Notes under the pieces: generated by a model | Databases searched by the model: none | What the model was told of the DNA's origin: nothing | What the model saw: only the letters and a program-made list of their open reading frames with translations | Assembly (NCBI GenBank): GCA_963796275.1 | Contig: CAWCKY010000003.1 | Span: 288,001 to 352,000 of the forward strand | Direction: 5' to 3' | From: an uncultured Acidobacteriota bacterium | GTDB taxonomy: Bacteria; Acidobacteriota; Blastocatellia; RBC074 | Length of the DNA: 64,000 nucleotides | In this document: positions 28,421 to 49,430 of the stretch, piece by piece | Layout: the number at the start of each line of letters is the position of its first letter | Position numbering within the stretch: position 1 is the first letter of the stretch | Made by a program: the position numbers and the translations under genes

Positions 28421-28585
28421 CGGAAGCCAATTCCCCATTTATCGGGAAGTCAAGCTAGGGAATGGATTCCCTAGCCGTCACTCTTCGCCGAGCCTCAGGC
28501 AGCAAAGTCGTTGTAAACACAGCATCAAATAGAACCAGCGGCAACAGTGCGTTGTGGTACGGATACTGCTTTACCGAAGTCCGGT
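28421..28585 (+). promoter_or_regulatory. Sigma-54 promoter (28555-28570) with upstream palindromic enhancer (28454-28475)
   Basis: TGGTACGGATACTGCT fits the -24/-12 GG-N10-GC pattern; perfect palindrome GCTAGGGAAT-gg-ATTCCCTAGC about 100 bp upstream; homologous copy at 45569-45735. Confidence 0.75.
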
Positions 28586-28634
28586 CGGTTTATTGGACCG
28601 GGTCCCCCTGCCCGGCGTGCTGATCGTATTTTTG

Positions 28635-28670
28635 TCAGGCTTTAGCCGGATGATCCCGACTGAAGCCTGA
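28635..28670. repeat. REP-like hairpin
   Basis: tcaggctttagccgg...ccgactgaagcctga imperfect inverted repeat. Confidence 0.45.
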
Positions 28671-28703
28671 GGAACCTCAAACTGAGAACGCGAGATTGAT
28701 CAC

Positions 28704-31199
28704 ATGAAGAAACGAATATTGAAGGTCGCGCTCATCCTGATTGCCGTGGTTACAGTCATGATCATTATCGCCGGACGCGACAAGCCGATGCAGCAGGTGC
28801 AGGATGAAGCGATGCGAGCGGGCCGTGATCTGGCATCATTTACCATAGCGGATGAAGATTATTTCCATGAGATGGATGGCGGGGTCGCGTTGACACCGGA
28901 TGAGGTGAAGGGTCGAAACACTTGGATTGTCTGGACTGGAGGCAACGATCGTTTCTGGGACGAGATCGCGAGGAGAAGCGTCGGAGGACTGGATCTGCTC
29001 AAGACGCTGTCGTCTTACGATCCGGAGAAGGATCTCCGCCACTCGGCCGAAGAACGTGAGCGGCTGAAGGGCATCTACAAGGCGAGCCGCGACAACCGCT
29101 GGCGCTATCTGGGTCTCGTTAATGAGCCGTGCTTTGAGAAAGCTATCGGACCGAACGAAAAGCGCTTCGGTCTCTGGTTGGATCGACGGCGGCCGGATTG
29201 CTCTTCAGATCCTTTCGAGAACGAGGAGAAATATCCGGGAGTAGCGATCGGAGCGCGCGGCAGCAACCTGACGGCCGGATCCTTCTATGGCTACGCCAGC
29301 GGCATCGTGGGTCTGCGTCTATTCCCGAACCCGGACTTCGACGAGCCCGCGGCAAAAAAATGGGATCCGGTCAGATACTATACTGATCCTTCATATTATG
29401 ATTCGAAAGATCTGATCAAGCCTTACCGGGTGGGTATGTCATGCGCGTTTTGTCATGTTGGCCCCAATCCGGTTAAACCGCCGGCGGATGCGGAGAATCC
29501 GGGATGGGAGAACCTCAGTTCAAACGTAGGCGCCCAGTACTTCTGGGTCGACCGCATCTTATCCTGGCAGGCGGACGAGACCAATTTCCTCTTTCAGCTA
29601 TTGCATACAGCGCGGCCCGGCGCGCTCGATACTTCGCTGGTTTCGACCGATTACATCAATAACCCGCGAACCATGAACGCCGTCTACCACCTCGGTCCGC
29701 GCCTCGGCGCAGCGAAGCAGTGGGGCAGGGAGAAGCTCTCCGGCGGCGGTCTCGACAACAAGCAGTTGAACGATTACGTGTCGAGCGGCCGGCTCACCGA
29801 ATTCTTCCAGCAGCCGGACATCGTATGGACGCCTAGCGTGTTAAAAGATGGCGCCGATTCAGCGGGCGCTCTGGGCTCCCTCAATCGCGTCTACCTCAAC
29901 ATCGGCCTCTTCGGCGAGGAGTGGCTATTGCATTTCAATCCGCTGGTCGGCGGCAAGCGGATCACGCCGATCGAGGTCAAGGTCGCCCGTAAGAATTCAG
30001 TCTATTGGCAGGCGACGGAGGCGCAGACGTTCAACATGTTGCTCTTCTTTCTCAAGGGCGCAACTCCGCATCGCCTGAGAGAAGCCCCCGGCGGACCGGC
30101 CTATCTGACCGAGAGCCGAGCTACGATCGATCGCGGCAAGGCAGTCTTCGCCGATAACTGCGCCCGCTGCCATTCGAGCAAATTGCCGTCACTCCCGAGA
30201 GGTTCCGATCTCGGCAACTGCGCCGGTCCGAACTATCTCGAATGCTGGAACCGGTACTGGAGCTGGACGAAGACGAAAGAGTTCAAAGCGAAGATGCGGG
30301 AGATCGTCATGGCCGATGATTTTCTGAAGGACAATTTCCTCTCGACCGATCTGCGCGTCCCGGTCACGCTTTTGCAGACCAATGCTTGCAGTCCGCTCGC
30401 CACGAACGCTATCGCCGGAAATATCTGGGACAACTTCTCATCGCAAAGCTATAAAGCGCTGCCGTCCGTCGGAACGATCACGGTTCATCATCCGATCACC
30501 GGCGAAGAGCGTCAATATCAGATGCCCGCAGGCGGCCGTGGCTATACGCGCCCGGCATCGCTGGTGAGCCTCTGGTCGACGGCGCCGTTTCTGTTGAACA
30601 ACTCCGTCGGTAAGTTCGAACCGAACCCCTCTGTCGAAGGCCGTATGCGATCATTTCAAGACTCGATCGAACAGATGCTCTGGCCGGAGAGGCGAAAGAG
30701 GGATGCCGTTCTGGGCGACGTGGTGCCCGGTGTTATCGACCGTACGACCACGACCAGCTACCTGCGGGTGCCTGCCGGCTATCTGCCCGATTTTCTGCAG
30801 GAGTTGCTGGATCCTGCGGCCCGCTATTTTCCCTGGTTGTTTTCCACCGAAGGGATCGAGATCGGGCCGATCCCTGCCGGCGTACCCATCAACCTGCTGG
30901 CCAACCTGGAACTGGTCCCGGAAAGCGACGATCCGGACGCGCAACTCGCACACGGGAAGCGGCTGCTGGCATTGCTGCTCAAGGCCAAGCGCGACCTGAA
31001 AGCCATACCGAAGGGCGCCACAGACGAAGACGTCCGCAAGGTCTTCGCGAACCTGGTCGAACCTCTCCTGGAGTTGAACAAATGTCCCGATTTCGTCGTC
31101 AACCGCGGCCACTACTTCGGGACCAGCTACTTCTCGGAAGAGCCGGGCCTGAGCGACGCCGATAAGAGGGCGCTCATCGCGTTCTTGAAGACCTTCTGA
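28704..31199 (+). CDS. Large exported di-heme c-type cytochrome (distantly RoxA/MauG-like), function unknown
   Basis: N-terminal signal/anchor; CAFCH and CARCH heme motifs; LWSTAPFLLNNSV and LIAFLKTF C-terminal motifs. Confidence 0.7.
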   Translation: MKKRILKVALILIAVVTVMIIIAGRDKPMQQVQDEAMRAGRDLASFTIADEDYFHEMDGGVALTPDEVKGRNTWIVWTGGNDRFWDEIARRSVGGLDLLKTLSSYDPEKDLRHSAEERERLKGIYKASRDNRWRYLGLVNEPCFEKAIGPNEKRFGLWLDRRRPDCSSDPFENEEKYPGVAIGARGSNLTAGSFYGYASGIVGLRLFPNPDFDEPAAKKWDPVRYYTDPSYYDSKDLIKPYRVGMSCAFCHVGPNPVKPPADAENPGWENLSSNVGAQYFWVDRILSWQADETNFLFQLLHTARPGALDTSLVSTDYINNPRTMNAVYHLGPRLGAAKQWGREKLSGGGLDNKQLNDYVSSGRLTEFFQQPDIVWTPSVLKDGADSAGALGSLNRVYLNIGLFGEEWLLHFNPLVGGKRITPIEVKVARKNSVYWQATEAQTFNMLLFFLKGATPHRLREAPGGPAYLTESRATIDRGKAVFADNCARCHSSKLPSLPRGSDLGNCAGPNYLECWNRYWSWTKTKEFKAKMREIVMADDFLKDNFLSTDLRVPVTLLQTNACSPLATNAIAGNIWDNFSSQSYKALPSVGTITVHHPITGEERQYQMPAGGRGYTRPASLVSLWSTAPFLLNNSVGKFEPNPSVEGRMRSFQDSIEQMLWPERRKRDAVLGDVVPGVIDRTTTTSYLRVPAGYLPDFLQELLDPAARYFPWLFSTEGIEIGPIPAGVPINLLANLELVPESDDPDAQLAHGKRLLALLLKAKRDLKAIPKGATDEDVRKVFANLVEPLLELNKCPDFVVNRGHYFGTSYFSEEPGLSDADKRALIAFLKTF

Positions 31200-31657
31200 T
31201 TAGTTTTTAGTTTTCAGGCTTTTATTAAGGCATAAAGCATCTTTTGTAGTTCTGTTATTCGATAATCGAGGTCGGAGCTTTTACCACGAGCAATAAAACA
31301 CAGCTGTTCAGCGATGATGCGCTGTGTATCGAGTTCAGCTAATGATCCAGTACGATTGATAAGAAATGGAGGAACTCTTTTGACCTTTGTCGCGCCTGTC
31401 CTTCGGCAATGTTTGATGGGATTGAAACAGACGCTCGTTTAATTTGATCCGTAATTCTATACAATTCGCTCTTGGGAAATTGGCGCACACTTCGTAGACA
31501 TAAACACACAACTCAATGCTCTTTTTCCATACCATCAAATCACGGGACGACTGGGATTTCATATAAATACCTTTCCAGGGTGGCCGAAGGTAGAAGTTAA
31601 CATAGCAACGAAAATCTAAACTGAAACTCGAAAACTAAAACTAAAAACTAAAAACTA
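31200..31657. mobile_element. Heptamer-repeat-armed cassette carrying a four-helix-bundle gene
   Basis: Left arm tagtttttagttttcag, right arm ctgaaactcgaaaactaaaactaaaaactaaaaacta; AT-rich; fills the whole cytochrome-GMC intergenic gap. Confidence 0.55.
31214..31562 (-). pseudogene. Four-helix-bundle protein (S23/IVS-like, Avd-related), frameshifted
   Basis: RDLMVWKKSIEL...FP; then KEFLHFLSI; then GSLAELDTQ..IA...ITELQKMLYALIK, spread over shifted frames. Confidence 0.75.
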
Positions 31658-31659
31658 TC

Positions 31660-33600
31660 ATGGCAGATTTCGACTATATCATCGTTGGGTCCGGTGCGGG
31701 CGGCGGGCCGCTGGCAGCCAACTTGGCAAGCGCAGGATTCAGAGTGATGCTGCTGGAGGCCGGCGGCGATCCCTGTGCGAACAGCGAGCTCGGACGTTTG
31801 ATGTATGAGGTGCCGATCTTTCACGGCCTCTCGACCGAGTTCGACGAGTGCCGGTGGGACTACTTCGTCCGTCATTACGCCGACGATGCGAGGCAGAATC
31901 AGGACAGTAAGATAGTTAAGGAAGACCCGGTCAGTAACATCGAAGTGAATGGCATCTGGTACCCGCGCGCCGGCGCACTGGGTGGCTGTACGACTCACAA
32001 CGCTATGATCACCGTCACGCCACAGAGCTGCGACTGGGACGAGATCGCCCGGATCACGGGTGACTCGACGTGGCGCGCCGACTATATGAACCGGTACTTC
32101 GCCCGGCTCGAAGACTGCGGCTATCGGCCGAGGCCGGGCAGCGCGAAATATATCGTTCGCGGCCTGCTCTGGTCGGCCATCGCCCTTCTGCGGGGGCGCA
32201 AGGATTGGCGTGACTGGGCGCACGGCCACGGGTTCAACGGTTGGCTACCGACGAGCGAAGCGGACCCGCGTCTCATCCTCAAGGATGGAGCGCTCCTGGG
32301 TCTGCTGCTCAATGCGATCAAGTTCGCGTTCAAGACCGGGATCGAGAATCCGATCGCCAGCCTGCTCACCCGGCTCGACCCTAACGATCTGCGTAACGGC
32401 ATAGACATGCGGGAAGGTCTGGCTTTCACGCCGCTTGCCGTGGGGCAGGGAAAACGGAAGGGGCCGCGGGAGCTGCTGCTCGCCACCCGCCAGACGCACC
32501 CGAACAATCTCACTATTCAACTTCATTCGCTCGCAACCAGGATACTGTTCGAGAAGAATCGCGCGGTTGGCGTGGAGTTCTACGAGGGCGAGCACCTTTA
32601 CGAAGCCGATTCCCATGCGAGGAAGCGGCGCAGAGATGTGGCGTTGGGGCGGCAGGGCGATGGAGAATTCCCGCCTTTCATCGTCCGCCAGGTCTTCGCC
32701 GCACGCGAGGTCATCGTCGCCGCCGGCGCATTCAACAGCCCGCAGCTACTGAAGCTTTCGGGAATAGGGCCGAAACAGGAGTTGGCGCAGTTCGGAATCG
32801 ACCTGGTGGCCGATCTGCCGGGTGTGGGAGAGAACCTGCAGGACCGTTATGAGGTCGGCGTGGTCTCGGAGTTTCCCCAACCATTCGGACTCCTGGAGGG
32901 CGCCACTTTTGCGCCGCCCAAAGCGGGAGGACCGAAAGATCGATTCTTCCTTATGTGGGAGAAGGGTGAGGGCATATATGCATCGAACGGAGTCCTGCTC
33001 GGAATACTTAAACGTTCGGACAGGAAGAGAGCAGAACCGGATCTCTACATCTTCGGCTTGCCGGGATACTTCGCCGGGTATGAGCCCGGATACTCGGAAT
33101 TGTTCGAGCGCCAGCGCAACCGCTTCACCTGGGCGATCCTGAAAGCATATACACATAACACAGCCGGACGTGTGACGCTTCAATCAAAAGACCCCAGAAA
33201 GTGGCCGCGCATTGACTTTCATTACTTCACCGAGGGCAGCGACCAGCAGGGCGATGACCTGGATTCCATTGTTCACGGCGTGCAATTCGTACGCGAGATG
33301 AATCAGAACCTGGGCGCCGTCCAGGAGATATGTCCCGGTCCGGCATACGATACGCCGCAGCGGCTGCGCGAATTCATTCAGAACGAGGCCTGGGGCCATC
33401 ATGCTTCATGCACCAATAAGATCGGAAGCGACCACGACGAGTACGCGGTGCTGGACAGCCGTTTCCGCGTGCGAGGCACGCAGGGGCTGCGCGTCGTGGA
33501 TGCTTCGATCTTTCCCAAAATACCCGGCTATTTCATCGTCTCCGCCATCTACATGATTAGCGAAAAGGCATCCGATGTGATTATCGAAGACGCGGATTAG
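31660..33600 (+). CDS. GMC family FAD oxidoreductase
   Basis: DYIIVGSGAGG, YPRAGALGGC..HN, GVGENLQD, WGHHASCT, LRVVDASIFP. Confidence 0.9.
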   Translation: MADFDYIIVGSGAGGGPLAANLASAGFRVMLLEAGGDPCANSELGRLMYEVPIFHGLSTEFDECRWDYFVRHYADDARQNQDSKIVKEDPVSNIEVNGIWYPRAGALGGCTTHNAMITVTPQSCDWDEIARITGDSTWRADYMNRYFARLEDCGYRPRPGSAKYIVRGLLWSAIALLRGRKDWRDWAHGHGFNGWLPTSEADPRLILKDGALLGLLLNAIKFAFKTGIENPIASLLTRLDPNDLRNGIDMREGLAFTPLAVGQGKRKGPRELLLATRQTHPNNLTIQLHSLATRILFEKNRAVGVEFYEGEHLYEADSHARKRRRDVALGRQGDGEFPPFIVRQVFAAREVIVAAGAFNSPQLLKLSGIGPKQELAQFGIDLVADLPGVGENLQDRYEVGVVSEFPQPFGLLEGATFAPPKAGGPKDRFFLMWEKGEGIYASNGVLLGILKRSDRKRAEPDLYIFGLPGYFAGYEPGYSELFERQRNRFTWAILKAYTHNTAGRVTLQSKDPRKWPRIDFHYFTEGSDQQGDDLDSIVHGVQFVREMNQNLGAVQEICPGPAYDTPQRLREFIQNEAWGHHASCTNKIGSDHDEYAVLDSRFRVRGTQGLRVVDASIFPKIPGYFIVSAIYMISEKASDVIIEDAD

Positions 33601-33703
33601 TTTTCAGTTTTTAGTTTTCAGTATTCAGTATTTTCGAATAACTGAAGTGCGCGAGATGCTCGATGCCTTGATGAGAGCTCTGAAAACTAAAAACTAAAAA
33701 CTA
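33598..33703. mobile_element. Short deletion derivative of the heptamer/four-helix-bundle cassette
   Basis: Same arms (ttttcag/tttttag ... ctgaaaactaaaaacta); interior 33635-33697 on + encodes RITEVREMLDALMRALKTKN*, matching the four-helix-bundle C-terminus. Confidence 0.6.
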
Positions 33704-34492
33704 TTCGATGAGCGGAGGAGTAAAGTTATAAGGCGGCCACGGGCCGGTGATCTCAAAGGTCAGCCCTTGTTCAGCCAGTTCGGCAGAGGCCCACTCGACG
33801 CGCCCGCGGAGATCGGCCCGGACGATTTTCGGAGTCAGGAAGGCCCAGTTCAAAACGATCTCCGCGGCGCCTTCTGAGTTTGCGGTTGCTATCACTTTGC
33901 GAGCACGGAGATCGGTGGCAAACCCGCGCAAATCATCTGCTACTCGGGCACAGGTCTTCTGCAGCCATTGATGCAGTTCCTTCTCAGCCGACACTCGCGC
34001 CCGCTGCTCCAGCAAATAACGCATCCCTGGAGGCAGGGAGGCGGGGTCCATTCCGGCCTGTTGACTTGACTGAAGCCCCTGCAGTGCTCTCTCCCGGTTC
34101 AGCATACCCTTGATGCCCCACTCCTCGTGATCTGTCATCCGATCAAGGAACTGAGATATGGTGCTCCCGTGTTTTCGCTGCAGCCCTTCCAAATTCTCCA
34201 GCGATGAGAAGATGGTGCCGAACCGGGCTGGAAACACAGGGGAATGAGCCATCGCCTGTTCGATAACTGCTTCGTGGCGCCAGGCTCGGATCCCCAGCCA
34301 GGAGATATCCTCCATTTTGGCCTCGGCTGCCGGCCCGGAAAAATCCGCCACCATAACGGTGCTCAGAACTGCCGCGAGACCGGCAAACCTCCGCACTTGA
34401 AGCGGCTGCTCGCCATCCACACCGGTTCCGCTGAGCTCCGGCAGCAGGCCGGACCGGGCGAAACAGAAGAGATAATAGGCAGTATTTGACAT
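33701..34492 (-). CDS. gvpL: Gas vesicle protein, GvpL/GvpF family
   Basis: YLFCF, HEAVIE, P.RFGTIF, EWGIK, LN.AFL, TGPWPPYNF. Confidence 0.85.
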   Translation of the reverse strand: MSNTAYYLFCFARSGLLPELSGTGVDGEQPLQVRRFAGLAAVLSTVMVADFSGPAAEAKMEDISWLGIRAWRHEAVIEQAMAHSPVFPARFGTIFSSLENLEGLQRKHGSTISQFLDRMTDHEEWGIKGMLNRERALQGLQSSQQAGMDPASLPPGMRYLLEQRARVSAEKELHQWLQKTCARVADDLRGFATDLRARKVIATANSEGAAEIVLNWAFLTPKIVRADLRGRVEWASAELAEQGLTFEITGPWPPYNFTPPLIE

Positions 34493-34494
34493 AT

Positions 34495-35976
34495 TTATTT
34501 CGCGCTCTCAGCCGCCGTTTCGCCATCGCTCCACGAAGCCGCGTCCCCACGTCGCCGCGTCGCTTCTCCAGACTTCTCCAGACTTTCTTTGATGGCAATA
34601 CCATATTCTTTGAGCTTCGACTGGATCGTCTTATAGTCGATTTGAAGCAGGCGGGATGCCTTTGCTTTATTGCCCCTGGTGAGGGACAGCACCTGGATCA
34701 AGACCTCGCGCTCGACCGCGATAGTACTGCGGCGCACTATCTCTTTCAGGGGAAGCTGGCGCCAGGGTAGCACAGGCGGCGGGGAATGGCGCGCCTGGCA
34801 GGGCTGCTGCACTAGGTTGAGATGCTTATCGGTGATGATGTCATCGGCCAGGAGCGTTGCCCGGCGAATTGTGGAGCGAAGCTGTCTCACGTTTCCCGGC
34901 CAGTTGTAAGCCAGTAGTGCCTCGGTTGCAGCTCTCGAAAAACCGCCGACGGATTTTTTTAATTCCGCATTGGTCAGTTCCAGAAACCGGTTGGCCAAGT
35001 AGAGAATGTCTTCACTCCGGTCCCGCAGTGGTGGGATAACGATGGTAAATTCGTTCAATCGGAAGAAGAGATCCTCCCGAAACGAGCCCAACGCCGCCAG
35101 GGTCTGGAGGTCCTGGTTGCTGGCAGCCAGGACGCGCACATCGACCGCCATCGGCTTGGAACCTCCGACGCGATTGATCACTTTCTCCTGCAGCACCCGG
35201 AGCAATTTAGCCTGCGCTGCCAGGGAGAGATTGGGGATCTCATCGAGTAACAACGTCCCCTGCTGGGCCTGTTCAAAGCGCCCGACCTTTCGGGCGTGAG
35301 CGCCGGTGAAGGCTCCTCGCTCGTGCCCGAATAGTTCACTCTCGAGCAGCGTCTCCGGGATGGCCCCACAATCGATCGGGATGAAAGGCGCCCGCGCTCT
35401 CAGACTCGCCTGATGAATAGCGCGGGCGACCAGCTCCTTGCCGGAACCGGTCTCGCCGATGATGAGCACGCTGAAGTTCGATCTTGCCACCCGATCGACA
35501 TCGGCGATGAGACGGCTGATGACATTGCTGGTTCCCATCATCTCCCGGAGTGAACTTTGATCACTCGTTTGGTAGCGGGGCTTGAGTTGGCGAGGGCGAT
35601 TCCGCTCCTTCAACGCCTTAGAGACCAACTGAATGACTTCATCGAGATCGAAAGGTTTGGCCAGATAGCTGTATGCTCCAGCTTTCATAGCTTCGACCGC
35701 GTTCCGCACTGCCGCATAGCCGTTGAGTAAGATGACCGGCAGCCCCTCATCCATATCCCTAACGTGCCGCAGCACTTCCAATCCGGTCAGGCCCGGCATC
35801 CTGTGGACGACAAGCAGGAGATATGGAGTCTCGCTGCGTATCATCTTCAATGCCGTCTCCCCATTAGACGCCACCAACGGGGTCAGGCCCTCCATCTCGA
35901 TGAGGTGAGCCAGCAATTCACGCGTGCTCTCCTCATTGTCCACGATCAGGATCTTGCAATTGACTGTAGTCATCAC
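34495..35976 (-). CDS. Sigma-54-dependent enhancer-binding protein (NtrC-like) with an atypical receiver domain
   Basis: GETGSGKE, ESELFGHERGAFTGA, LLLDEI, WPGNVRQL, Fis-type HTH; receiver has LLVVHRMPG where LLxD.xMPG is expected. Confidence 0.92.
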   Translation of the reverse strand: MMTTVNCKILIVDNEESTRELLAHLIEMEGLTPLVASNGETALKMIRSETPYLLLVVHRMPGLTGLEVLRHVRDMDEGLPVILLNGYAAVRNAVEAMKAGAYSYLAKPFDLDEVIQLVSKALKERNRPRQLKPRYQTSDQSSLREMMGTSNVISRLIADVDRVARSNFSVLIIGETGSGKELVARAIHQASLRARAPFIPIDCGAIPETLLESELFGHERGAFTGAHARKVGRFEQAQQGTLLLDEIPNLSLAAQAKLLRVLQEKVINRVGGSKPMAVDVRVLAASNQDLQTLAALGSFREDLFFRLNEFTIVIPPLRDRSEDILYLANRFLELTNAELKKSVGGFSRAATEALLAYNWPGNVRQLRSTIRRATLLADDIITDKHLNLVQQPCQARHSPPPVLPWRQLPLKEIVRRSTIAVEREVLIQVLSLTRGNKAKASRLLQIDYKTIQSKLKEYGIAIKESLEKSGEATRRRGDAASWSDGETAAESAK

Positions 35977-36367
35977 TTCCTCCTTACAGACAGATCGATT
36001 TGCACATTCATATTTGGTGATTGTCGGCTCAGATCGGCCAAGAATGAGCTTATGCTGAGAAGTCTTGGCAGGCTCAACGGTGGTTCTTGAATCTGAAACA
36101 CCAATCGAGCGCTCGGGTGATTGCCGCGCGGCCTGAGGTTGCAGGACAAGAGCCTGCTCTTATCGTGATTGTCTCCTCAAGGATGGTTTTGCCATCTAGG
36201 TGGTGGGCCCGGTAGAACGATTCATATATCGATGATTAGCCCGCACCGGCATATCGTTCTCCTAACCTGGGCCGTCGAGCGAAGCACCAATGCCCGACGA
36301 TGGCGGCTGAGGATACTTTTAATTCTACGGCCACTGAAATCGGTTATCGTTAGTTCAGCAATATATT

Positions 36368-36598
36368 CTCAACTCCGCGATACCAACTCTATTGAAGAAT
36401 GTTATTGTTATGCTCTCCCTTCAAATTCTATGTTGTAACTACTTGTATTACGTCAAACCACATAGCATCAGATTCGAGTTCAAATGTAACCACCATCCAA
36501 CAGCACAAATCATAAATCAATAGAGCTTTGATAAGCTTAAAAGCTCTGGAATAAAGTGAACAAAGGCCGATAAAAATTTCATAAAAACGGCGAGAATT
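36368..36598. repeat. Diverged duplicate of the 40568-40791 regulatory region
   Basis: Collinear shared blocks accaact, gttattgt, ttcgagttcaaa, atcataaa, gccgataaaaat, cggc.agaa. Confidence 0.7.
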
Positions 36599-36792
36599 TA
36601 AATCAAAGCAATAAAGGTTGATACAAACTACGAGGAAATAAAGAGTAAGAGAAGGAAGAAAAGGAGAAGATCAAATGGGTTGCCCACTTTTCTTGGTTCT
36701 CTTCATTTCTTCGTAGTTTTAATTATCTGCCCCAATGTCGTCTACCCGGTATATTGAAAACCATCACCTGTGAAGTATGATAATCTTCCTTA

Positions 36793-39223
36793 CTAATGCC
36801 GCAATGCCACTAGCGGATCAAGCTTCATTGCTCTGCGCGCGGGCAAATAACAAGCGAGCAACGCAACACTCATCAACAATAGCGCAACGCCCCCGAACGT
36901 CAGCGGGTCAGTTGCACTCACCTCGAAGAGCAACGTCTTCATCAACCGAGTCAATGCCAATGCGCCGCCCAGACCAATTAGTATACCGATGAGCGTCAGT
37001 CTCATTCCCTGTCCGATAACAAGTTTCATTACGTCGCCCCTGTGCGCGCCGAGCGCCACCGAATCCCGATCTCGTGCCTGCGCTGCGTGACTGTATAACT
37101 CAGCAAGCCATATAGCCCCACGCTGGCGAGCGTCAGTCCCAACAGCGCGAACGCGCCGAGCAACACCAGATTGAACCGGCGTGACGAAGCAGAGTTGGCC
37201 ATCAGTTGTTCGATAGTCTGAATGTTGGAGATAGATTGATCTTTGTCTACGGCCCAAACCCGATCGCGCACTGAGGCAATCATCTGAAGCGGGTTGCCGC
37301 CGGTGCGCACTACCAGGGTCATATAGTTGTTATTCTGGATTTGCGCCAGCGGGAAATAAACTTGGGGATTGGCTTCCTCGTCCAATGCGGAGTGTTTGAT
37401 ATCTTTTAAGACGCCCACGATCTCGCGAGAGACGCTTCGAAAGCCGATGCGCTTGCCGAGCGAGTCTTCTCCGGGCCAGAAGTATTGCGCCGCCGCTTCA
37501 TTGATAACAACCACTGGCGGCGCATTGACGCCGTCGCTTTCAGCGAGCAGTCGGCCTCTTTGCAGCGGGATGCGCAGCGTCTTGAAAAAGTCCGAACTGA
37601 CTTGACAGATTCCGGCGTTGAAGCTTTCACCGGGCGGCAGCGGCCTGCCTTCGATAGCAAAGTCTGCGCTCCACAATGCGCCACTGAGCGGCAGTGGATA
37701 GGCCGCTGCTGTGGCTTCCACACCTGGTAATGAGCGCACGGGTTCCAGTGTCTGTTGAAAAAAGTTTGCCCTCTGGGCGCCCGCGTATTTTCCGCGAGGC
37801 AGTTGGATATCCATCGTCAAAACGCGCTGTGGATCGAGTCCCGGATCAACCCTGATCATCCGCTCAAAACTCCTGAGCAGCAATCCCGCTCCGATCAGCA
37901 ACACAAAAGCCAGGGCCACCTCGCTAACAATCAGCATGCTTCGTAAACGATGGTGCGGCGCTCCGGTAGCACTGCGCCCCCCCTCTTTGAGTGTCTCGTT
38001 GAGGTATGGTCGCGAAGCCCGAATGCCAGCAGCAGGCCGAAAACAATCCCGGCTAGCAGCGAGATGAGGAAGGTGAAACACGCTACACTGGTATCCAGTC
38101 GGATATCGTCCGTGCGCGGCAGATTAGCGGGGCTGAGCACCGGCAGCAGCTCAATACCCCACCAGGCCAGACACAGACCAAGCGTGCCCCCGCTGACAGC
38201 CAGCAGCAGGCTTTCCGTTAGCAACTGCCGCACGACACGCCAGCGGCCGGCGCCGATAGCTGCGCGAATCGCCAACTCCTTTTGCCGCGCGGCGGCGCGC
38301 GCCAGCAAGAGATTAGCGACATTCGTGCACGCAATCAACAAGACGAACCCTACAGCTCCCAGCAACACCAGTAAAGCCGTCTGAACCCTGCCGACGATCT
38401 GTCGTTGCAGGGCTACTACCCGCACATTTCCGCCGTTATTGGTCTGCGGATATTGCTCAGCCAGACGGCGAGCGATATCCTCCATCTCAGCTTGCGCACC
38501 TGCGATGCTGACGCCCGCTTTGAGCCGCGCCAGCACGGTCAGATAGCCTCCCTGGCGGCTGCTCAATTGCCCAGGCGTGAAAGCGGTAGGCAGATAAATA
38601 TCAACTTGATCGGCGAACTGGAAAGCTGCTGGAAGATAGGCTTTGCGCGGGAAATGGAAATCGGGCGGCAGCACGCCAATAACAGTGTGGACTTCATTGT
38701 TTAGCGTGATCGTCTGCCCAACGAGTTTTGGGTCTAAGCCGAAGCGCCGCTGCCACAACCCGTGACTGATGAGCGCGACGCGAGGCGCACCTGGCTGCTC
38801 TTCTTCAGGCAGAAACGTGCGCCCAAGCATAGCGCTGATGCCCACCAACGAGAAGAGACTGGCCGAAGCGCGCACGCCGCCCACGAACTCCGGCTCGCCA
38901 CTGCCTGTCAGGTTGATGTTATGCGAGTGCAGGGCCGCCATTCGCTCAAAGACATGATTTTGATTGCTCCAATCTACGAAATCCGCTACGCCCACTGGAA
39001 ATACGGGCAAGCCATACCTTGCCTCATGAATCGGATAATGTATCCAGACCATCACCAACGCTGCAGGATCGCGGTACGGCAGCGTGCGCAGTAATACACC
39101 GTTGACGACGCTGAAGATGGCCGTGTTTGCGCCAATGCCCAGCGCCAGCGTGAGGACAGTAATCACCGTGAATCCGGAATTTTTCAGCAACATTCGTATG
39201 CCATAACGCAGGTCTTGAAACAT
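36793..39223 (-). pseudogene. ADOP / MacB-like duplicated ABC permease, split by two apparent frameshifts (~38020 and ~37060)
   Basis: QDLRYG.R.L.K..GFT...[13 protein letters not shown]; [12 protein letters not shown]; EIGIR; ARRAMK.DP.VALRH across three overlapping ORFs. Confidence 0.85.
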
Positions 39224-39334
39224 ATCGTCCTCAGTACATCAAGAAAAAGGAAGGGCGGCCACCGCCACCCTTTCGAGACCTATTTCTTGCTCTGCTTGGG
39301 TGAGTAAGCAGAGCAGGATAATTTTTGCTAAAGG

Positions 39335-39840
39335 CTACGCCTCAATTCCTTTGCCCTCTGATGACATTGTCATTTGGTCAACATGGTTCTTCAGCCAACT
39401 ATCGAATAGAGCGGGGTCGGTTGATGAAACAGGATTATCAGTTAAGAAAGAAAGTTCGCTTTCTTTGGCAGATTCTTCAGAAATGCTAAGGTCGGGACGT
39501 GACCTCATAATGAAAAACTGACTGGATTCGACAAGCTCCTTAAGTTGTGGCTGCCAGTGCTCGGGACCTGACATTCGACCACTGGCAATAATCTCATTGA
39601 CGATGGACTGATTGGGAAGTGGAATGAGAATCATTACTTGATAGTCTTCTCCGCTCTCCATCGACCAGACTTTCATCTGTCGAAAGCCATATCCAAGTAG
39701 TTTGGGAATGATCTTGTTTTTAAGTGGTCAACAAAAGCCTCCCAATTATATGACTTGACGCTATAGTGTTTAGAATAACACCACTGTTGATTGGCTGGTT
39801 GCGTAATTTGATCGGTTATTGACTCTGGTGATTGGCTCAT
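39335..39840 (-). CDS. Hypothetical small alpha/beta protein (possibly NIPSNAP/ABM-like); frameshift in an A-run near 39720
   Basis: AAGGAG RBS and ATG 39840; one added base joins MSQSP...YSVKSYNWEAFVDHL to the 39335-39676 ORF. Confidence 0.45.
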
Positions 39841-40096
39841 ATTTCGTAACTCCTTGATGGATGATAAGCGTAATATGAGCTTGTAAGCATTGAAATTCCT
39901 GAGCTAGCAAGCTCGCGGGTAAGCAAAGACGGCTGTGATTTTACCATACCTCTGTTTAAAGCCAATTGAAACCCTATACGCGGCAAGCGCCATACTAATC
40001 AGAGAATATGCCTACTCCTCAACTACCCTAATAGCTGAGGACGTAATGGCTGAGGACGCTGCTAAATGGCTGGTCGGTATATCGAGAGAGCTCAAA

Positions 40097-40448
40097 CTAT
40101 GTCGATGGAACTAATTCCGACTCTTCTTCAAGAAAAATGTGGAGCTCTTTAGTCGTTATCAAGGCCGGTTCCCAAACCCTACTCAATGCCCTGCTCACGC
40201 GTTCTTGGTCTACGAAAGGAATAAGCACGATGATATTGTAGATGCCTTTTTGGTCGGTTCGGTTTGCAGAAAAAACTTTGACCTGCCTTTTCTCTTGATC
40301 AGTCAACCTTGAATTTGCATTTGTATTTGGATTCGTTGGATTAAAAATCAATTCCAGGGTATCTTCGTGTGTTTTCCCTGAGAGCTTCTTCCCGGCCTTC
40401 CCCTACCACCACCTCATAGCTCACCATTACATATTTAGTGAATCCCAT
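40097..40448 (-). CDS. Hypothetical small protein; frameshift near 40378
   Basis: GAGGTG RBS and ATG 40448 (MGFTKYVMVSYEV...) joins the 40097-40351 ORF if one base is removed. Confidence 0.45.
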
Positions 40449-40567
40449 TTTTCACCTCAATCGAAGGGGTTAGTAATCAGATGCGATTCAATCTGTTTCG
40501 CATCGCTATGTTGCAGTCTTCCGAATGTCGGTTGGGTTCCGGGGTACGGGTTGAGGGCAATCTAAGC

Positions 40568-40791
40568 CTCAACCCGCGTCACCAACTTTTTTGAAAAAGT
40601 TATTGTCACGCTATCTCTTCTGTTTTATGATGCGATTACTGTCATCTCAAACAGCTCAGCATCGAGTTCGAGTTCAAACGTGACCATCACTTAAGTACGC
40701 GGATCATAAAACAAGAGGGTTTTGATTAGCATAAAAACTCGGAAAAAGTTCAATAAAAGCCGATAAAAATCCAATAAAGTCGGCAAGAACT
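40568..40791. promoter_or_regulatory. Divergent regulatory region with ~11-bp phased A-tract (ATAAAA-like) repeats
   Basis: Lies directly before the wHTH-AAA start; homologous to 36368-36598. Confidence 0.55.
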
Positions 40792-40793
40792 CG

Positions 40794-42172
40794 GTGAAAA
40801 CTATGACTTATGAATTTGGCCTGTATCGCTTCGATCCAAGTACCGGTAAGTTATTTAGTTCCGGCAATCCGATAGATATTGGACCACGGCTGGCCGAACT
40901 GCTAACGATCTTTATGCAGCACCACGGACAGGCGCTGGGAGACGAAGAGTTACTGGAGATGCTCTGGCCTGGCGACCAGAACAAGGGTGGAGAGAATCTA
41001 GCTGCTAACATCTTTAATCTGCGGAAGAAGCTCGGCGCAGGGCAATATATTGAAAGGATTGCCGGACGCGGATATCGTTTTGTCGGCGCCGTGAAAATGA
41101 TCGATCCAGATGCTTCGCCGCAGAGCTATCCGCTGCCGCCGGGCGGTGCCGTACCGCTCGATTCACCGTTCTACATTGCGCGGAGAACGGATGATGAGTT
41201 TTATAAGGCGATTGCGCGCCGCGACAGCATCGTCCTGGTCAAAGGTGGGCGGCAGGTAGGCAAAACCTCTTTGCTCGCCCGCGGGCTGCAAATCGCTCGC
41301 GAATCCGGAGCCACCGTCATCCTGACGGATTTGCAGCATCCGTCAGGCGAAGCTTTCTCAAGCGTGGAAAAGCTGCTGCTCGAGCTGGGAGAACGAATCG
41401 CTGGCCAGATGAATTTGAAGACCAGACCTCACGATGTGTGGAGCAGTCTGCTCAGCGCCAGCGCCAATTTTCACAATTATCTGCAACGCGAAGTGTTAGG
41501 CAAGATATCCTCTCCACTGGTTTGGGGGCTTGACGAAATAGACCGGCTGTTCGGATTTGATTACGCAAGCGAAGTGTTCGGACTGTTCCGGTCCTGGCAT
41601 AACTTGCGCGCACTGGAACCCTCAGGACCGTGGCGGCGGATGACGCTGGCCATGGCCTATGCAACGGAAGCCCACCTGTTCATCACTGATTTGAATCAAT
41701 CGCCATTTAACGTCGGCACCAAGCTTGTACTCGAAGACTTGACCTACGATCAAGTCGCCGAACTCAACCGGCAATATGGCGCACCACTCAAAGACGAGTC
41801 GGAGATCGCGCGATACATCGCTATGGTTGGCGGGCACCCTTACCTGGTGCAGCGGGGCCTTTACGAAATGACCGAGCACGGTTTAGACCTCGCTTCAATC
41901 GAAGGGAATGCCGATTACGATGAGGGAATATTCGGCGAACATCTGCGACGGATGTGGGTTTCACTGACCCGCGACGCTGATTTGTGTAATGCCGTGCGCG
42001 ATCTGTTGCAGGCCAAGCGGGGATTGGCGATCACCAACTTCTACCGACTGCGCAGCGCAGGGGTGCTGGTCGGTGATTCAGCACACATGCGCAGTTACGG
42101 TGCCAACTTTACGCCAAGTTTTTGAAGAAGCATCTTTTCTCCCCCGACAGCCCGGAGGTTTTTGATGATTGA
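40794..42172 (+). CDS. OmpR/ToxR-type winged-HTH fused to an AAA-like (AAA_35-type) NTPase; frameshift near 42085
   Basis: YEFG.YRFD...LRKKL...GRGYRF; [34 protein letters not shown]; conserved RCQLY tail lies in a shifted frame. Confidence 0.8.
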
Positions 42173-45100
42173 GTCTCCTCGCTTTTTTCGTGATTTGAGC
42201 TTGACCGATCGCGTTGAGTTCTTCGTCACTGGCGGGACAATGATGCCTGACGCGCCATCTTATGTTGAGCGGCAGGCCGATTGTGATCTGTATGACAGTC
42301 TCCTCGAGGGAAAATATTGTTATGTGTTGACCGCCCGCCAGATGGGGAAATCGTCGCTCACTGCGCGCACGGCGGCGAAATTGCGCCAGGTTGGCATCGG
42401 TGCTGTCGTGGTCGATCTGGCGGCGATCGGGCGCAACCTGACTGTCGAGCAATGGTATGGGAGCGTCTTGAGCTGGATTGGGAGAGGCATTGAGTTATCG
42501 GAAGGCGAGCTGGAAGAATTCTGGCAGTCGAGGCCGCTGCTCGGCCCGGTGCAAAGATGGATGTGCGCATTGCGCGAAATCATTCTTCCTCGCTATCAAG
42601 CTCAACTAGTCGTTTTCGTGGATGAAGTCGATTACCTGCTGGATTTGCCGTTCCCGATGGACGAGTTTTTCGCAGCGGTCCGCGAATGTTACAACATGCG
42701 CGCGGAAGACGCCGTGATGCATCGATTGACGTTTTGTCTGGTAGGTGTGGCGACGCCATCGGACCTCATCCGAAACAAGCGCACTACGCCATTCAACATC
42801 GGCCGGCGAATTGAATTGCACGATTTTACGGTGGCGGAGGCCGCACCGCTCGCGCGCGGGCTGAGACGCGACGATAAATTGAATGACTCCCTGCTCAAAC
42901 GCGTGTTGTATTGGACAAACGGTCATCCTTTTCTTACCCAACGTCTGTGTCGAGCTATAGCTGATGATGCTGGCGTCGAAGGTAAAGGTGACGTTGATCG
43001 TTTATGTAATGACTTATTTCTCACGCGCCGCGCACAGGAGTTAGATGATAACCTGCTTTTTGTGCGAGACAGTATACTTCGCAGCGAAGAGGACAAGGCT
43101 GCTCTGCTCGACTTGTACGGGAAAGTGAGAAGGGGCAAACGTGTGGAAGATGATAACACCAACACGCTTGTCATTATTTTACGTTTGTCGGGGGTCACGC
43201 GAACAGCAGACAATTACATTAAAGTTCGCAACCGCATCTACAAACGCGTTTTCGATCATGAATGGGTTGAGAGAAACATGCCTGATGCGGAATTGCGGCG
43301 GCAGCGCACGGCATACCGCCGAGGTCTATGGCGAGCCGGATTATTTGGTGGCGTCATCCTCTCTCTCATCGTGGCACTTGCAATCAATGATGTCAGAAGA
43401 CAGAAGGCCGCGCGAGACGTTGCCCAGAGCCTGCTATTGGCAGCGCAACCGCAGATATTACCGGATGAGATCGAAAAAGCTTATGCGTCCAGGGCTAAAG
43501 CGGAGAATCTGATTCGGATGGTTGCTTACAAAAATCATATCAAACAAGCGCAGGAGGCGTGGGAAGAATCCAATGTTGCTCGGGTCGAAGAGCTGTTGAA
43601 CTTCTGTCGACCGAAGGGTGGAGAGCAAGATCTCCGCGGGTTTGAGTGGCACTACCTTTGGCAAGCGAGCCATCAGGAAAGCCGATCTCTGAAACGTGAG
43701 AATCCGGTTGTAGCGTTACAATTCGCGCCGGACGGCAAGCGAATTGCTATTGGTGAATCTTTACAACCGGTAGATAGTGAAAAGTCAAAATACAGGATTG
43801 AATTCCTAGATTTGGATCGGGCAGTAACAATTGATTCGTTTGAGACGCAGTCAAGAGGTGATTTCAACAGAATGATCTTCACTCACGATTCGCGCAAAGT
43901 TCTGGTCGATGACGACCAGAATAGGGCCAGCTTATTGGATATGAAATCCGGCAAGAGCCTGGCTATCTTCAAAGGTCATGATCAGTCGTTGTCAGCGATT
44001 AATATATCAAGTGATGGACAAAGGATTGTGACGGGGGATACGCGAGGAAGGCTGCAATTTTGGGAAGTAGCAAAAGAGCCAAAGAGCAGAAGGCAGGAGA
44101 AACAGCAGCAGAACGTTACCTGGGTCGACCTCTCGCGGAATGGGAACCGGGTTGCGAGCGCAACAGGATCTAACGCGGTGAAAATATGGGATTTCTCTAC
44201 CGGGCGTGAACTGATGTCGCTGGAAACCAAAGAAGGAGTCTTCACGGTTGCTGCCTTCTTTCCGGATGGTCGCCATCTTCTGACCGCGACAAAAGACGGA
44301 GCTATGCAGGTCTGGGATCTTCGTGCAAGGGCAATCACGGCCAAATTAACGGGACATTTTGGTTCGCTTGTAGCGCTTGCATTCTCTCCTGACGGAGCGA
44401 AACTGGCAACAGCCAGCGACGACAGAACCGCCAGACTTTGGGATCTCGCAGCCCGGCGCGAACTCATCTCAATCAAAGGACACGGCTAATGGGTTTCTGC
44501 TATTTCCTGGTCACCTGATGGCAAACTACTCGCCACGGGCAGCGCAGACAGGTACGTCAAGATTTGGGATGTCGAAACGATGCTCAAAGAGGGCGTCGCA
44601 GTTGAGGGATCACGCGTAGAATCTTATTGGGCATCAGCGTTTTCTGAAGACGGCTTCCCCCTGGCGGTCGCCAAGACCAGCGATGGGAAAGTGAAGATAT
44701 TGCGCGTGCCATCTGGCCAAGAGGTGTCAACATTGTATGAATCGTACAACGACCTCCAGTTCGCGGTCTTCTCTCCTGATGCCGAAAGGGTAGCAACCTC
44801 TGGGATAGGGCCTTCGATAAGTATCTGGGATGTCCGGAGCGGAAAGAAAATAGTGTCATTGGCCGCGAAGACCGAGAATGTTTTTACGGTGGCCTTCTCA
44901 CCCGATGGGAAAAAGCTAGCTTCCGTTTACGATAACGATCGTACGTTGAAATCATGGGATACGACGACAGGGCAGGAATTATCTTCGCTCAAAGCCGACA
45001 ACAAGCTCTCATATCGGATAGCATTCTCGCCCGACGGGACGACCCTGGCTGCCGCTTGCGACAATGGCAATGTTATCCTCTGGAATATCGATACTGGTCA

Positions 45101-45474
45101 GTCAGTGCCTATCAAAGCACACAATGGCGTTGTCAGCACCATTGCCTTCTCATCAGACGGATTGAAACTTGCGACCGGGGGAAAAGACAACGCCGTCAAA
45201 TTGTGGGATGTGAAAACGGGGCGGAAATTGCTTGATATGGGACAGGCGGAATCTATTATATCGCGCAACCTTTTCACCCGACGGCAAAAATCTGATCACC
45301 GGCAATACTGAAGGTACAGTGATTATATGGAATGTCCTAACAGGACAGGAACTGATGATCCTGCATAAGCACGCAAGTTATGTGACTTCGATAAATTTCT
45401 CCAACGACGGAAGAGGTTTGGTTACTAGTGGCGAAGATGGGTCGGTAAAAGTCTGGCGGTTAACCGAACAATAG
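42162..45474 (+). pseudogene. AAA-like (AAA_35-type) NTPase, TM segment and WD40 repeats; in-frame TAA at 44487-44489 and frameshift near 45245-45260
   Basis: SYVERQAD, RQMGKSS, FVDEVD, TPFNIG, WTNGHPFLTQ; many FSPDG...WD repeats continue past both breaks. Confidence 0.8.
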
Positions 45475-45488
45475 TAGTAACCCGTGAG

Positions 45489-45564
45489 TAGTTGATAGGT
45501 TGATAGTTGATAGTTCGTATACACTGTGGTAACAACATATACAAACTATCGACTATCGACTATC
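45489..45564. repeat. MITE-like heptamer-armed element (tagttga / tc(a/g)acta family)
   Basis: Arms and ~30-bp core are homologous to 60464-60545. Confidence 0.65.
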
Positions 45565-45568
45565 TTAT

Positions 45569-45735
45569 CGGAAGCCATTCCTCATCGATCGGGAAGTCAC
45601 GCTAGGGAATTGAATCCCTAGCTATCACCCTTCACCGAATCTCACACAGCAAAATCATTGCAAACACAGGATCGACTGGCAGGCCGCGGCGGCGGCGTGT
45701 TGTGGTCCAGGCCTTGCCTTACTGAAGACCGGTTA
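45569..45735 (+). promoter_or_regulatory. Sigma-54 promoter (45703-45718) with palindromic enhancer (45601-45622) for the gvp operon
   Basis: TGGTCCAGGCCTTGCC fits GG-N10-GC; GCTAGGGAAT-tg-AATCCCTAGC; collinear with 28421-28585. Confidence 0.75.
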
Positions 45736-45786
45736 GCCAGGACACTCCCTGCCTGGCCGCGATATTTTATTTTGAAAGGAGAGGTA

Positions 45787-46060
45787 ATGATGGCGAATGT
45801 AGCCAGAATCTTCTATTGAATCTCCCAACCTGGCGGAGATGCTCGAACGCATCCTGGACAAGGGTATAGTGATTGATGCCTGGGTCAGGGTGACGTTGAT
45901 CGGGATCGAACTGCTCGCGGTGGAAGCGCGAGTGGTGATCACTTCGATCGACAGATATTTGCAATATGCTGAAGCTATCGGCCTCATAGTACCAGTGGCG
46001 CGGCCTCCGGTAATTGACACACCGGAACCGGCAGCGACACCGACACCAGCACCGGCATAA
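45787..46060 (+). CDS. gvpA: Major gas vesicle shell protein GvpA; apparent +1 frameshift at ~45808 (ORF intact from 45839)
   Basis: [36 protein letters not shown]...YL.YAEAIGL; strong RBS aaaggagagg before ATG 45787/45790. Confidence 0.92.
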
Positions 46061-46163
46061 ACCAGGCCATTAGCCATTGGTCATTGGCGGTAATGATGTT
46101 GAGACGCAATGACCAATGGCAGATGGAAAATGACAGATGACAAATGAAAAATGGAGGAGCCAT

Positions 46164-46922: not shown

Positions 46923-46946
46923 AACAGGGGGGACCTCAGAAAGCTG

Positions 46947-47204
46947 ATGCTGCTCGTTGATGACATCCTGCTATCTCCTATCACCAGTTTCTTCTGGATA
47001 CTGCGGGAGATTGGAAAGGCCGCGCAACAAGAACTGGCCAGTGAGAGAGAGGCGGTCACTGCTGAATTGGGGTATCTGTATATGATGCTGGAGACCGGAA
47101 TGATAACCGATGCGGAGTTCGATGCGCGGGAGCATGAGTTGCTCGATCGACTCGATCAATTGCAGGGGCAGCCTGCTGAGGATGATTCAGAGGAAACGAG
47201 TTGA
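46947..47204 (+). CDS. gvpG: Gas vesicle protein GvpG
   Basis: MLLVDDILLSP...WI...LE.G.ITDAEFD.RE.ELLDRL. Confidence 0.88.
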   Translation: MLLVDDILLSPITSFFWILREIGKAAQQELASEREAVTAELGYLYMMLETGMITDAEFDAREHELLDRLDQLQGQPAEDDSEETS

Positions 47205-47206
47205 GA

Positions 47207-49168: not shown

Positions 49169-49430
49169 GGAATCTCTTCTGGAGAACCAGAAAAAAGAGG
49201 CGGAGCGGGACGCGCCAACCGCGCTGGTCTGTTCCGACACCGAGCGTGTCTCGCTCTGCGAACTCCTCGACCGAATCCTTAACAAGGGGGTGGTGATGGC
49301 GGGAGCAGTGACGATCTCAGTGGCGGACGTAGACCTGCTCTCCCTCGATCTGCGCATGGTTCTGACATCCGCCGCGATACTTAGCAAGAAGTGGCAGCCG
49401 GAGTCCGTAACAGTATCAGGTGATAAATGA
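49158..49430 (+). CDS. Gas vesicle protein, GvpA/J/S family
   Basis: SLCELLDRILNKGVV.AG.V.ISVADVDL..LDLR. Confidence 0.85.
   Translation: MFSEESLLENQKKEAERDAPTALVCSDTERVSLCELLDRILNKGVVMAGAVTISVADVDLLSLDLRMVLTSAAILSKKWQPESVTVSGDK

Follow-up and report, generated by a model that had tools for sequence, protein, structure and literature searches.

Two copies of a putative sigma-54 promoter cassette precede gas-vesicle and cytochrome genes in an uncultured soil Acidobacteriota

Introduction

At NtrC-type enhancers such as that of glnAp2 in enteric bacteria, dyad sites lie ~100-150 bp upstream of a GG-N10-GC promoter element and the activator is an AAA+ protein with a GAFTGA motif; in the LuxO/Qrr system several sigma-54 promoter copies stand under one NtrC-type activator. 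Gas-vesicle genes come under this kind of control in Serratia sp. ATCC 39006: in the sections of Tashiro et al. (2016; PMC4982088) drawn on here, GvrA is a sigma-54, NtrC-like regulator controlling gvpA1, a sigma-54 consensus precedes the mapped gvpA1 start site, and the gvp clusters of Proteobacteria comprise two operons, one of gvpA1 and another in which gvrA is almost always the first gene. Among the genomes with a GvrA-type cluster that the paper names, besides Serratia, are those of Psychromonas ingrahamii, Desulfomonile tiedjei and Burkholderia thailandensis. The terms palindrome, inverted repeat and upstream activator are absent from that paper. The Serratia work was the only published case of sigma-54/NtrC-type gas-vesicle control that our searches found, subscription-only papers lying outside their scope, and none of the matches listed dealt with GvrA by electrophoretic mobility shift assay, motif or footprint. 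Here we analyse a 64,000-nt stretch of DNA (the window; positions 288,001 to 352,000 of contig CAWCKY010000003.1, assembly GCA_963796275.1) from an uncultured Acidobacteriota bacterium of the Blastocatellia. In this window a gas-vesicle (gvp) cluster, and a pair of genes encoding a c-type cytochrome (cyt831) and an oxidoreductase of the GMC family, are each preceded by a copy of one non-coding block. We think it likely that the block is a sigma-54 promoter cassette, of which the gvpA copy is native and the cytochrome copy a diverged duplicate, with one activator for both.

The window resembles the Serratia system in that an NtrC-family activator is encoded in the gas-vesicle cluster and a -24/-12 promoter stands before the first gvpA. 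The label GvrA-type, as used here, rests on operon order, compared between the cited sections of PMC4982088 and a cluster from Desulfobacterota (locus L135), and not on Serratia sequence. A protein with REC, sigma-54 AAA+ and HTH_8 domains was found in the gvp cluster, but a phosphorylatable receiver with kinase partners was not. Unlike in Serratia, the receiver of the activator is without its phospho-acceptor Asp, partners of the GvrB/GvrC type are missing from its neighbourhood, the activator/gvpL unit stands 9.6 kb away from gvpA with unrelated genes between, and a second copy of the promoter cassette would serve a gene outside the gvp set. With glnAp2 the locus shares dyad activator sites upstream of GG-N10-GC and an AAA+ protein with GAFTGA, but its site is GGAAT-N2-ATTCC, its physiological target is another one and its receiver is not phosphorylatable. 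One activator and repeated units of promoter plus upstream activator site (UAS) that define a regulon recall LuxO/Qrr; here, however, the downstream products are protein-coding and the evidence for a small RNA is weak. Control of gvpA by sigma-54 and an NtrC-type activator is thus already known from Serratia (PMC4982088).

Results

The two blocks (~28421-28636 and 45569-45774; Table 1), which lie ~17 kb apart, are collinear in a MAFFT alignment, with a mean column identity of 76% over 344 columns (flanks counted in) and an ungapped 97-nt core of 81% identity (28430-28526 versus 45577-45673). As the initial annotation had described, both diverged copies read as a TTCC..GGGAA dyad (TTCCC-N8-GGGAA at 28431-28448, inside the distal region, in copy 1; 45578-45595 in copy 2), followed by a 22-bp palindrome and a GG-N10-GC element. 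The distance from the palindrome start to the -24/-12 element is 101 nt in copy 1 and 102 nt in copy 2, the palindrome centres lying 91.5 and 92.5 nt upstream of GG, respectively. Similarity extends ~55 nt beyond the -12 element, up to a TATTTT run at ~28636 and ~45773, and the duplicated unit therefore runs on into the transcribed leader; its end in the gvpA copy lies almost at, or coincides with, the gvpA ribosome-binding site.

The ~55 nt of similarity past the -12 element could also mean that what was duplicated is a gene for a small sigma-54-dependent RNA, or a regulatory leader/attenuator, specifying a hairpin RNA of 45-60 nt in a Qrr-like layout. Both leaders fold into a hairpin that shows one compensatory change (CCGGG/CCCGG versus CCAGG/CCUGG) and has a U-rich stretch behind it, and the fold of the gvpA copy has z = -2.84. 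The fold of the cytochrome copy, however, has z = -0.61, the U-run lies 6-13 nt away from the stem, and the leaders of orthologous clusters differ in sequence. No Rfam covariance model matched, at E up to 1, either of the two 3-kb loci that contain the blocks, and a terminator scan of both blocks detected no terminator-like site. Moreover, since the gvpA ribosome-binding site follows the leader at once, transcripts must read through. We regard an RNA gene or attenuator as very improbable.

The cassette occurs at these two places only. A scan of the genome (9,456,497 bases) for the palindrome pattern with up to two mismatches found two sites, both in the blocks, and the reversed control pattern gave zero matches in the same bases; the core GGGAATNNATTCCC occurs twice in the genome, with a sigma-54 element nearby only at 28454-28475. 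By blastn against its own genome, the block matched the second copy alone (E 2.4e-25; next best match, E 0.6), and BLAST against 60 related genomes found no copy. With two copies in the genome and none in the 60 relatives, a dispersed repeat or mobile element was rejected, and the block is not a generic repeat.

A short repeat lies in the flanks of both cassettes. Tandem ACTATCR heptamers (at least two units) number 75 in the genome versus ~0.3 expected by chance, often as inverted pairs, and stand in the window at 45490-45565, 58015, 58426 and 60513. Shortly before the gvpA cassette one heptamer pair makes a hairpin; upstream of the cytochrome cassette there is a single copy (28339-28355).

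Sigma-54 elements were scored with a weighted consensus (TGGCAC-N5-TTGCW-like). The -24/-12 element of the cytochrome copy scores 0.89, and 320 genome sites (both strands) score as high; at a score of at least 0.85, this genome has ~one element per 12.8 kb of each strand. The genome has a single copy of rpoN (one PF04552 match, 198 bits), and the arrangement of sites recurs before gvpA in orthologous clusters, which bears out the layout of a sigma-54 promoter with upstream activator sites proposed at first. We regard as well supported the assignment of the cassette as a putative sigma-54-dependent promoter comprising GGAA-N4-TTCC activator sites, a -24/-12 element and the opening ~55 nt of the leader.

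Between the two copies lies the gene of an activator that, as initially noted, contains GAFTGA and is coupled to gvpL, whose start codon (34490-34492) lies immediately beside the stop codon of the activator gene (34495-34497). The Sigma54_activat domain (PF00158) of the activator was found at E 1.4e-66. In the receiver (residues ~10-110) the phospho-acceptor Asp is replaced by Val (LLVVHRMPG versus LFTDFKMPG in orthologues), a conserved Thr by Asn and DD by DN, whereas all seven orthologues of the first sample described below keep the Asp, the Thr and DD. Because the receiver has lost the phospho-acceptor Asp, the activity of the activator is probably not set by phosphorylation. We could not detect any HisKA/HATPase kinase gene among the 25 open reading frames scanned in 22858-52538.

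The genome encodes ~51 sigma-54 AAA+ domains, and both blocks might be sigma-54 promoters whose palindrome is bound by another of these enhancer-binding proteins, given that the neighbouring one has a degenerate receiver with no kinase gene beside it and that no palindrome was found before its own gene in the window. However, across phyla the palindrome accompanies orthologues of the neighbouring activator, and it is restricted to the gvp clusters of these. The helix-turn-helix (HTH) of the activator, NKAKA-RLLQIDYKTIQSK, is nearly identical in the orthologues and unique among the ~51 sigma-54 activator genes of its own genome, where the best paralogue has 49% identity over 41 residues. We find binding by another activator improbable, and the putative assignment of the neighbouring activator to the palindromes well supported.

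Orthologous clusters were sought in two samples. In the first, one genome per species was scanned with the activator, which yielded 80 loci (1.42 Mb) with seven full-length orthologues of 53-59% identity, from metagenome-assembled genomes (MAGs) of Desulfobacterales, Desulfatiglandales, "Pseudomonadota" and Verrucomicrobia; the other 73 loci hold paralogues of 36-44%. Four of the seven orthologues are in gvp clusters with the order activator-gvpL-gvpF-gvpA, the contigs of the other three being too short to tell. All four clusters have a strong -24/-12 element before gvpA (for example, TGGCACAGTTATTGCT) and the palindrome TATGGAATGGATTCCAT centred 149.5-150.5 nt before GG; one of them, L134, has an additional GGGAATCAATTCCC at 85.5 nt before GG, with which the palindrome of the cytochrome copy aligns. 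In an alignment, the gvpA upstream regions of these clusters are collinear with both window copies, palindromes being matched to palindromes and -24/-12 elements to -24/-12 elements.

The second sample comprised 400 other genomes of Desulfobacterota, the phylum of L135, from which 19 loci were fetched. Activator orthologues are present in 18 of the genomes, and 11 of the loci are in gvp clusters; ten of these show gvpA, while L245 has gvpL/gvpF matches only, on a contig that ends before gvpA. A sigma-54 element of at least 0.84 stands ~86-108 nt before gvpA in 14 of 14 clusters (four from the first sample and ten from the second), and GGAATNNATTCC with up to one mismatch lies 110-400 nt before gvpA in 8 of the 14, as compared with 3.8% of random windows from the same loci. 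Nine of the ten exact GGAATNNATTCC sites in the 1.42 Mb of the first sample fall in five orthologue loci. In each of the whole genomes behind L135 and L137 (4.2 and 6.0 Mb) TGGAATNNATTCCA occurs exactly twice, both times inside the gvp cluster, once before the activator operon and once before gvpA. Because activator orthologues, sigma-54 elements and palindromes recur in other gvp clusters, the gvpA copy is, on this comparison, the putative native promoter of the GvrA type known from Serratia.

The gene order of L135 is two kinases, a 217-aa gene, the activator, Hsp20, CDC48-like AAA, Hsp20, REC, gvpL and gvpF, followed by a PAS kinase, REC, gvpA and gvpN, in total three kinases and two REC proteins; gvpH is Hsp20-like and gvpZ is an AAA protein. 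The Desulfobacterota clusters also have a second palindrome, TATGGAATAWATTCCATA, ~180 nt downstream of another sigma-54 element and 40 nt ahead of the gene that opens the activator operon (L135 9128-9351; L137 ~9159-9330; L138 ~9300), a placement that suggests autoregulation of that operon.

Flavoprotein-cytochrome c dehydrogenase complexes, and pairs of a GMC oxidase with a heme peroxidase, offer the nearest parallel to the genes behind the other cassette. As in these, a GMC flavoenzyme gene stands beside a multi-heme c-type cytochrome gene; in contrast to them, no small Tat-signal subunit is seen in the window and cyt831 has no significant sequence relative in PDB, where sequence and profile searches matched the heme motif only. 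The CxxCH motifs of cyt831 are at residues 247-251 and 486-490, and an AlphaFold model made with a 23-sequence alignment was poor (mean predicted local distance difference test score 45.9). Assignment of cyt831 to the di-heme cytochrome c peroxidases (NCBIfam NF040606) was rejected, the match covering residues 472-636 only and its 34.6 bits being far below the cut-off of 150. The second protein is above the Pfam cut-offs for both GMC_oxred_N (68.3 bits) and GMC_oxred_C (91.5 bits), and its N-terminus, MADFDYIIVGSGAGGG, starts directly at the GxGxxG motif for binding flavin adenine dinucleotide (FAD), with no signal peptide; export of the two proteins as a pair, as supposed initially, is thus not clear.

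The pairing of cytochrome and GMC genes in a two-gene module is conserved and widespread. The cyt831 family has at least 6919 proteins (E up to 1e-10) in several phyla, all named hypothetical or cytochrome c; the closest named homologue, at 78% identity, is from a Blastocatellia MAG. We compared 92 other cytochrome loci, 80 from metagenomes, 11 from a sample of genomes of the phylum and one from a genome of the same genus (G001); the best locus in the metagenome scan with the cytochrome had 74% identity, the relatives of 81-91% from the protein search not being returned. A GMC gene is present in 52 of the 80 metagenome loci, directly downstream and on the same strand in 37, and in 34 of the 52 loci whose downstream sequence extends for 2.2 kb or more it starts within 1.5 kb; it is also present in 10 of the 11 genome loci and in G001. 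The pair has a DyP-like neighbour in 14 loci and a RoxA-like cytochrome neighbour in 10, and these hint, as a lead only, at peroxide- or oxygen-dependent extracytoplasmic chemistry of the pair.

Neither gvp genes nor the activator were found in the available flanks of any of the 92 loci. Nor does any of them have the palindrome nearby; the 91 metagenome and genome loci, 1.05 Mb in all, are free of it. No sigma-54 element of at least 0.85 was detected upstream of the cytochrome gene in the 77 loci scored (66 metagenome, 11 genome); at a threshold of 0.78, 10 of the 66 metagenome loci have one, about chance level. The general link between gas vesicles and the redox pair that the initial annotation envisaged therefore fails in the other loci, the same-genus one included, and among the matches listed no literature joins gas vesicles with a GMC oxidoreductase. 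In G001 (87% complete) the cytochrome and GMC proteins have 78% and 81% identity to those of the window and a 45-nt gap separates their genes; the block is absent from the 190-nt region upstream of the cytochrome gene, no gvp genes were found with the query used, and there is no orthologous activator (best match 41%). Because the pair is conserved elsewhere without gvp genes, activator, palindrome or sigma-54 element, and G001 is without the block, the cytochrome copy is, judging from these loci, a lineage-specific addition derived from the gvpA promoter region. Downstream of the block the window shares with G001 the words GGCTTTAGCC and GATGATCC in the same order, although the MAFFT alignment is unconvincing; this is only a hint that a native cytochrome leader persists behind the inserted block.

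Contigs from soil metagenomes show variants of both copies. One joins 28284 to 28423 with six other letters between, so that the left edge of the cassette coincides with a recombination junction, and in a soil-metagenome variant the block also stands before the cytochrome gene, with a different upstream junction. A second contig, ~89% identical, spans 45583-46272 and with it the gvpA copy; its -24 element is TGGCCCG, nearer to the consensus than that of the window.

It may be asked whether the cytochrome copy works at all, or whether it is an inert or decaying by-product of duplication, with a working gvpA copy, a cytochrome gene that uses another promoter, and no common regulon. Identity between the blocks has fallen to 76-81%, one nucleotide is inserted in the distal site of the cytochrome copy, other rearrangement scars lie nearby (the IVP remnant, the orphan block 36453-36596 and the fragmented WD40 genes; see below), and orthologous cytochrome genes manage without sigma-54. 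Yet the cytochrome copy has kept a perfect palindrome and has a better -24/-12 match than the gvpA copy (0.89 versus 0.78). GG/GC, the TGG/TGC triplets and both site regions are retained between the copies while the -24/-12 spacer has diverged. Furthermore, a simple scan of both block regions (28200-28800 for copy 1) detected no sigma-70-like promoter, and the soil-metagenome variant keeps the block before the cytochrome gene at its different junction. We consider an inert cytochrome copy unlikely.

Table 1. Coordinates in the window of the cassette copies, their elements and the surrounding genes
Feature	Position	Strand	Basis or remark
Copy 1 of the cassette (activator sites, -24/-12, ~55 nt of leader), before the cytochrome gene	28421..28636	+	Alignment with 45569-45774
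Copy 1, distal region GGAAGCCAATTCC (GGAA-N5-TTCC) and GGGAAG half-site	28422..28448	+	Read directly
Copy 1, proximal 22-bp perfect palindrome GCTAGGGAATGGATTCCCTAGC, candidate activator-binding site (UAS)	28454..28475	+	
Copy 1, -24/-12 element TGGTACGGATACTGCT	28555..28570	+	GG 28556-57, GC 28568-69; predicted start near 28580
cyt831, 831-aa membrane-anchored protein with N-terminal hydrophobic helix and two c-type heme motifs	28704..31199	+	
Antisense remnant (75 aa) of a 23S-rRNA-IVP/four-helix-bundle gene	31335..31562	-	PF05635 (E 5.7e-4, profile positions 1-30 of 106 only); NF008911 (E 3e-5)
GMC-family FAD oxidoreductase, 646 aa, no N-terminal signal peptide	31660..33600	+	
gvpL/gvpF-family gene, directly after the activator gene	33701..34492	-	PF06386, E 2e-46
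GvrA-like NtrC-family activator (REC, sigma-54 AAA+ with GAFTGA, HTH_8)	34495..35976	-	
MacB/FtsX genes	37029-39223	-	
AAA_35/WD40 genes	40794-45474	+	
Copy 2 of the cassette, the gvpA promoter region	45569..45774	+	Collinear with gvpA upstream regions of orthologous clusters
Copy 2, distal site GGAAGCCATTCC (GGAA-N4-TTCC)	45570..45581	+	One mismatch to GGAATNNATTCC
Copy 2, proximal palindrome GCTAGGGAATTGAATCCCTAGC	45601..45622	+	20 of 22 positions the same as in copy 1
Copy 2, -24/-12 element TGGTCCAGGCCTTGCC	45703..45718	+	Score 0.78; 84 nt before ATG 45787; predicted start near 45728
gvpA, read through a 1-nt frame break at ~45808	45787..46060	+	
gvpF, gvpG, tandem ArsA/Get3-like ATPase, gvpJ, gvpK, gvpA-family gene	46137..50249	+	Order the same in G016, a genome of the same family

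In the assembly, the gvpA ribosome-binding site and ATG (45787/45790) open a frame of 10 codons with a stop at 45817; the frame that encodes GvpA does not open until 45803. In a contig from a soil metagenome one base is missing at 45808, which restores the frame and gives an N-terminus like that of the relatives; the deletion was not seen in the contigs of a second soil run. The break may be an assembly error or a true mutation. No gvpN was seen among the open reading frames of the gvp cluster in the window. The ArsA/Get3-like ATPase between gvpG and gvpJ is a two-domain tandem (47201-49168), kept, at 51% identity, in the only related genome with a gvp cluster (L052 7693-9636).

A second diverged non-coding pair of ~144 nt (36453-36596 and 40647-40789; 72-76% identical) is present in the window. 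The 40647-40789 copy stands directly before a gene with Trans_reg_C and AAA_35 domains at 40794, and the 36453-36596 copy is an orphan with no gene behind it, beside the upstream region of the activator. Three open reading frames, overlapping or adjacent (42162-44489, 44580-45311 and 45232-45474), make up the AAA_35/WD40 coding sequence, a fragmentation that suggests frameshifts, either real or due to assembly indels. An intact IVP gene, of the family to which the remnant behind cyt831 belongs, lies between gvpL and gvpF in L135.

Discussion

The above results point to one promoter cassette, native to the gas-vesicle genes and duplicated in front of the cytochrome gene, that probably serves both. 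Several observations weigh against this interpretation. The distal site of the cytochrome copy is one base longer than the GGAA-N4-TTCC of the gvpA copy, and the -24/-12 element of the gvpA copy is weak by itself, a score of 0.78 being reached ~once per 1.8 kb per strand. The palindromes are identical at 20 of 22 positions versus ~79% for the whole block, and the spacers are almost as conserved as the sites, so that conservation between the copies fails to single out the sites. In the second sample, GGAATNNATTCC with up to one mismatch was found in 4 of 10 clusters, the other six having no close match, and related clusters are non-independent samples; for both reasons the GGAAT-N2-ATTCC motif is, as far as the clusters compared indicate, a subfamily feature and not universal. 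The 460-bp spacer between cyt831 and the GMC gene (31200-31660) holds the antisense IVP remnant, flanked by inverted AAAACTA-type repeats, as against gaps of 14-240 bp in relatives; co-transcription of the GMC gene is therefore uncertain and the single operon initially described is in doubt here, although scans of the spacer for terminators and sigma-70 promoters found nothing. Finally, the gas-vesicle system may be decaying, since the receiver of the activator is degenerate and gvpA is frame-broken in the assembly.

A further point of this kind comes from G016, which has the only gvp cluster among the 60 relatives. A sigma-54 element stands before its gvpA, but we found neither an orthologous activator (best match 44%) nor the palindrome. 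The GvrA-type system would thus not be vertically inherited in this family, and the cassette before cyt831 would derive from the gvpA promoter region. The GvrA-type gas-vesicle cluster was probably acquired horizontally by this lineage; by GC content the gvp genes are not marked as foreign. Co-regulation of the cytochrome with gas vesicles would be confined to this lineage.

The proposed mechanism follows that of other NtrC-type activators. The C-terminal HTH of the activator (34495-35976) would bind the palindromes, and an activator oligomer would contact sigma-54 RNA polymerase at the -24/-12 element ~90 bp downstream and open the promoter at the expense of ATP, with predicted transcription starts at ~28580 and ~45728. 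In this way the gas-vesicle genes and the cytochrome gene would be expressed jointly, with the GMC gene possibly included by read-through.

In its widest form, our proposal is that duplication of the ~215-bp cassette rewired the cytochrome/GMC module into a phosphorylation-independent GvrA-like regulon, so that buoyancy and oxygen- or peroxide-linked extracytoplasmic redox chemistry are switched together, and that GGAAT-N2-ATTCC is an undescribed operator of GvrA proteins across phyla; we hold this with belief and doubt in about equal measure. The new elements are a candidate operator for the GvrA family and the extension of a regulon by duplication of a promoter cassette. The whole case is built on one uncultured soil genome and on inference, and is to be taken as a lead, not a result.

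The comparison yields a testable binding motif and a promoter architecture for gas-vesicle activators in distant phyla, and the motif may be useful to those who transfer gas-vesicle clusters to new hosts for use as acoustic reporters. Growth of the regulon appears to have come about through the copying of a whole promoter/enhancer cassette, a case in which both copies, the donor context and, in a genome of the same genus, the state before the event are visible. For the large uncharacterised cytochrome family to which cyt831 belongs, expression together with flotation genes in this organism appears to be the first functional hint.

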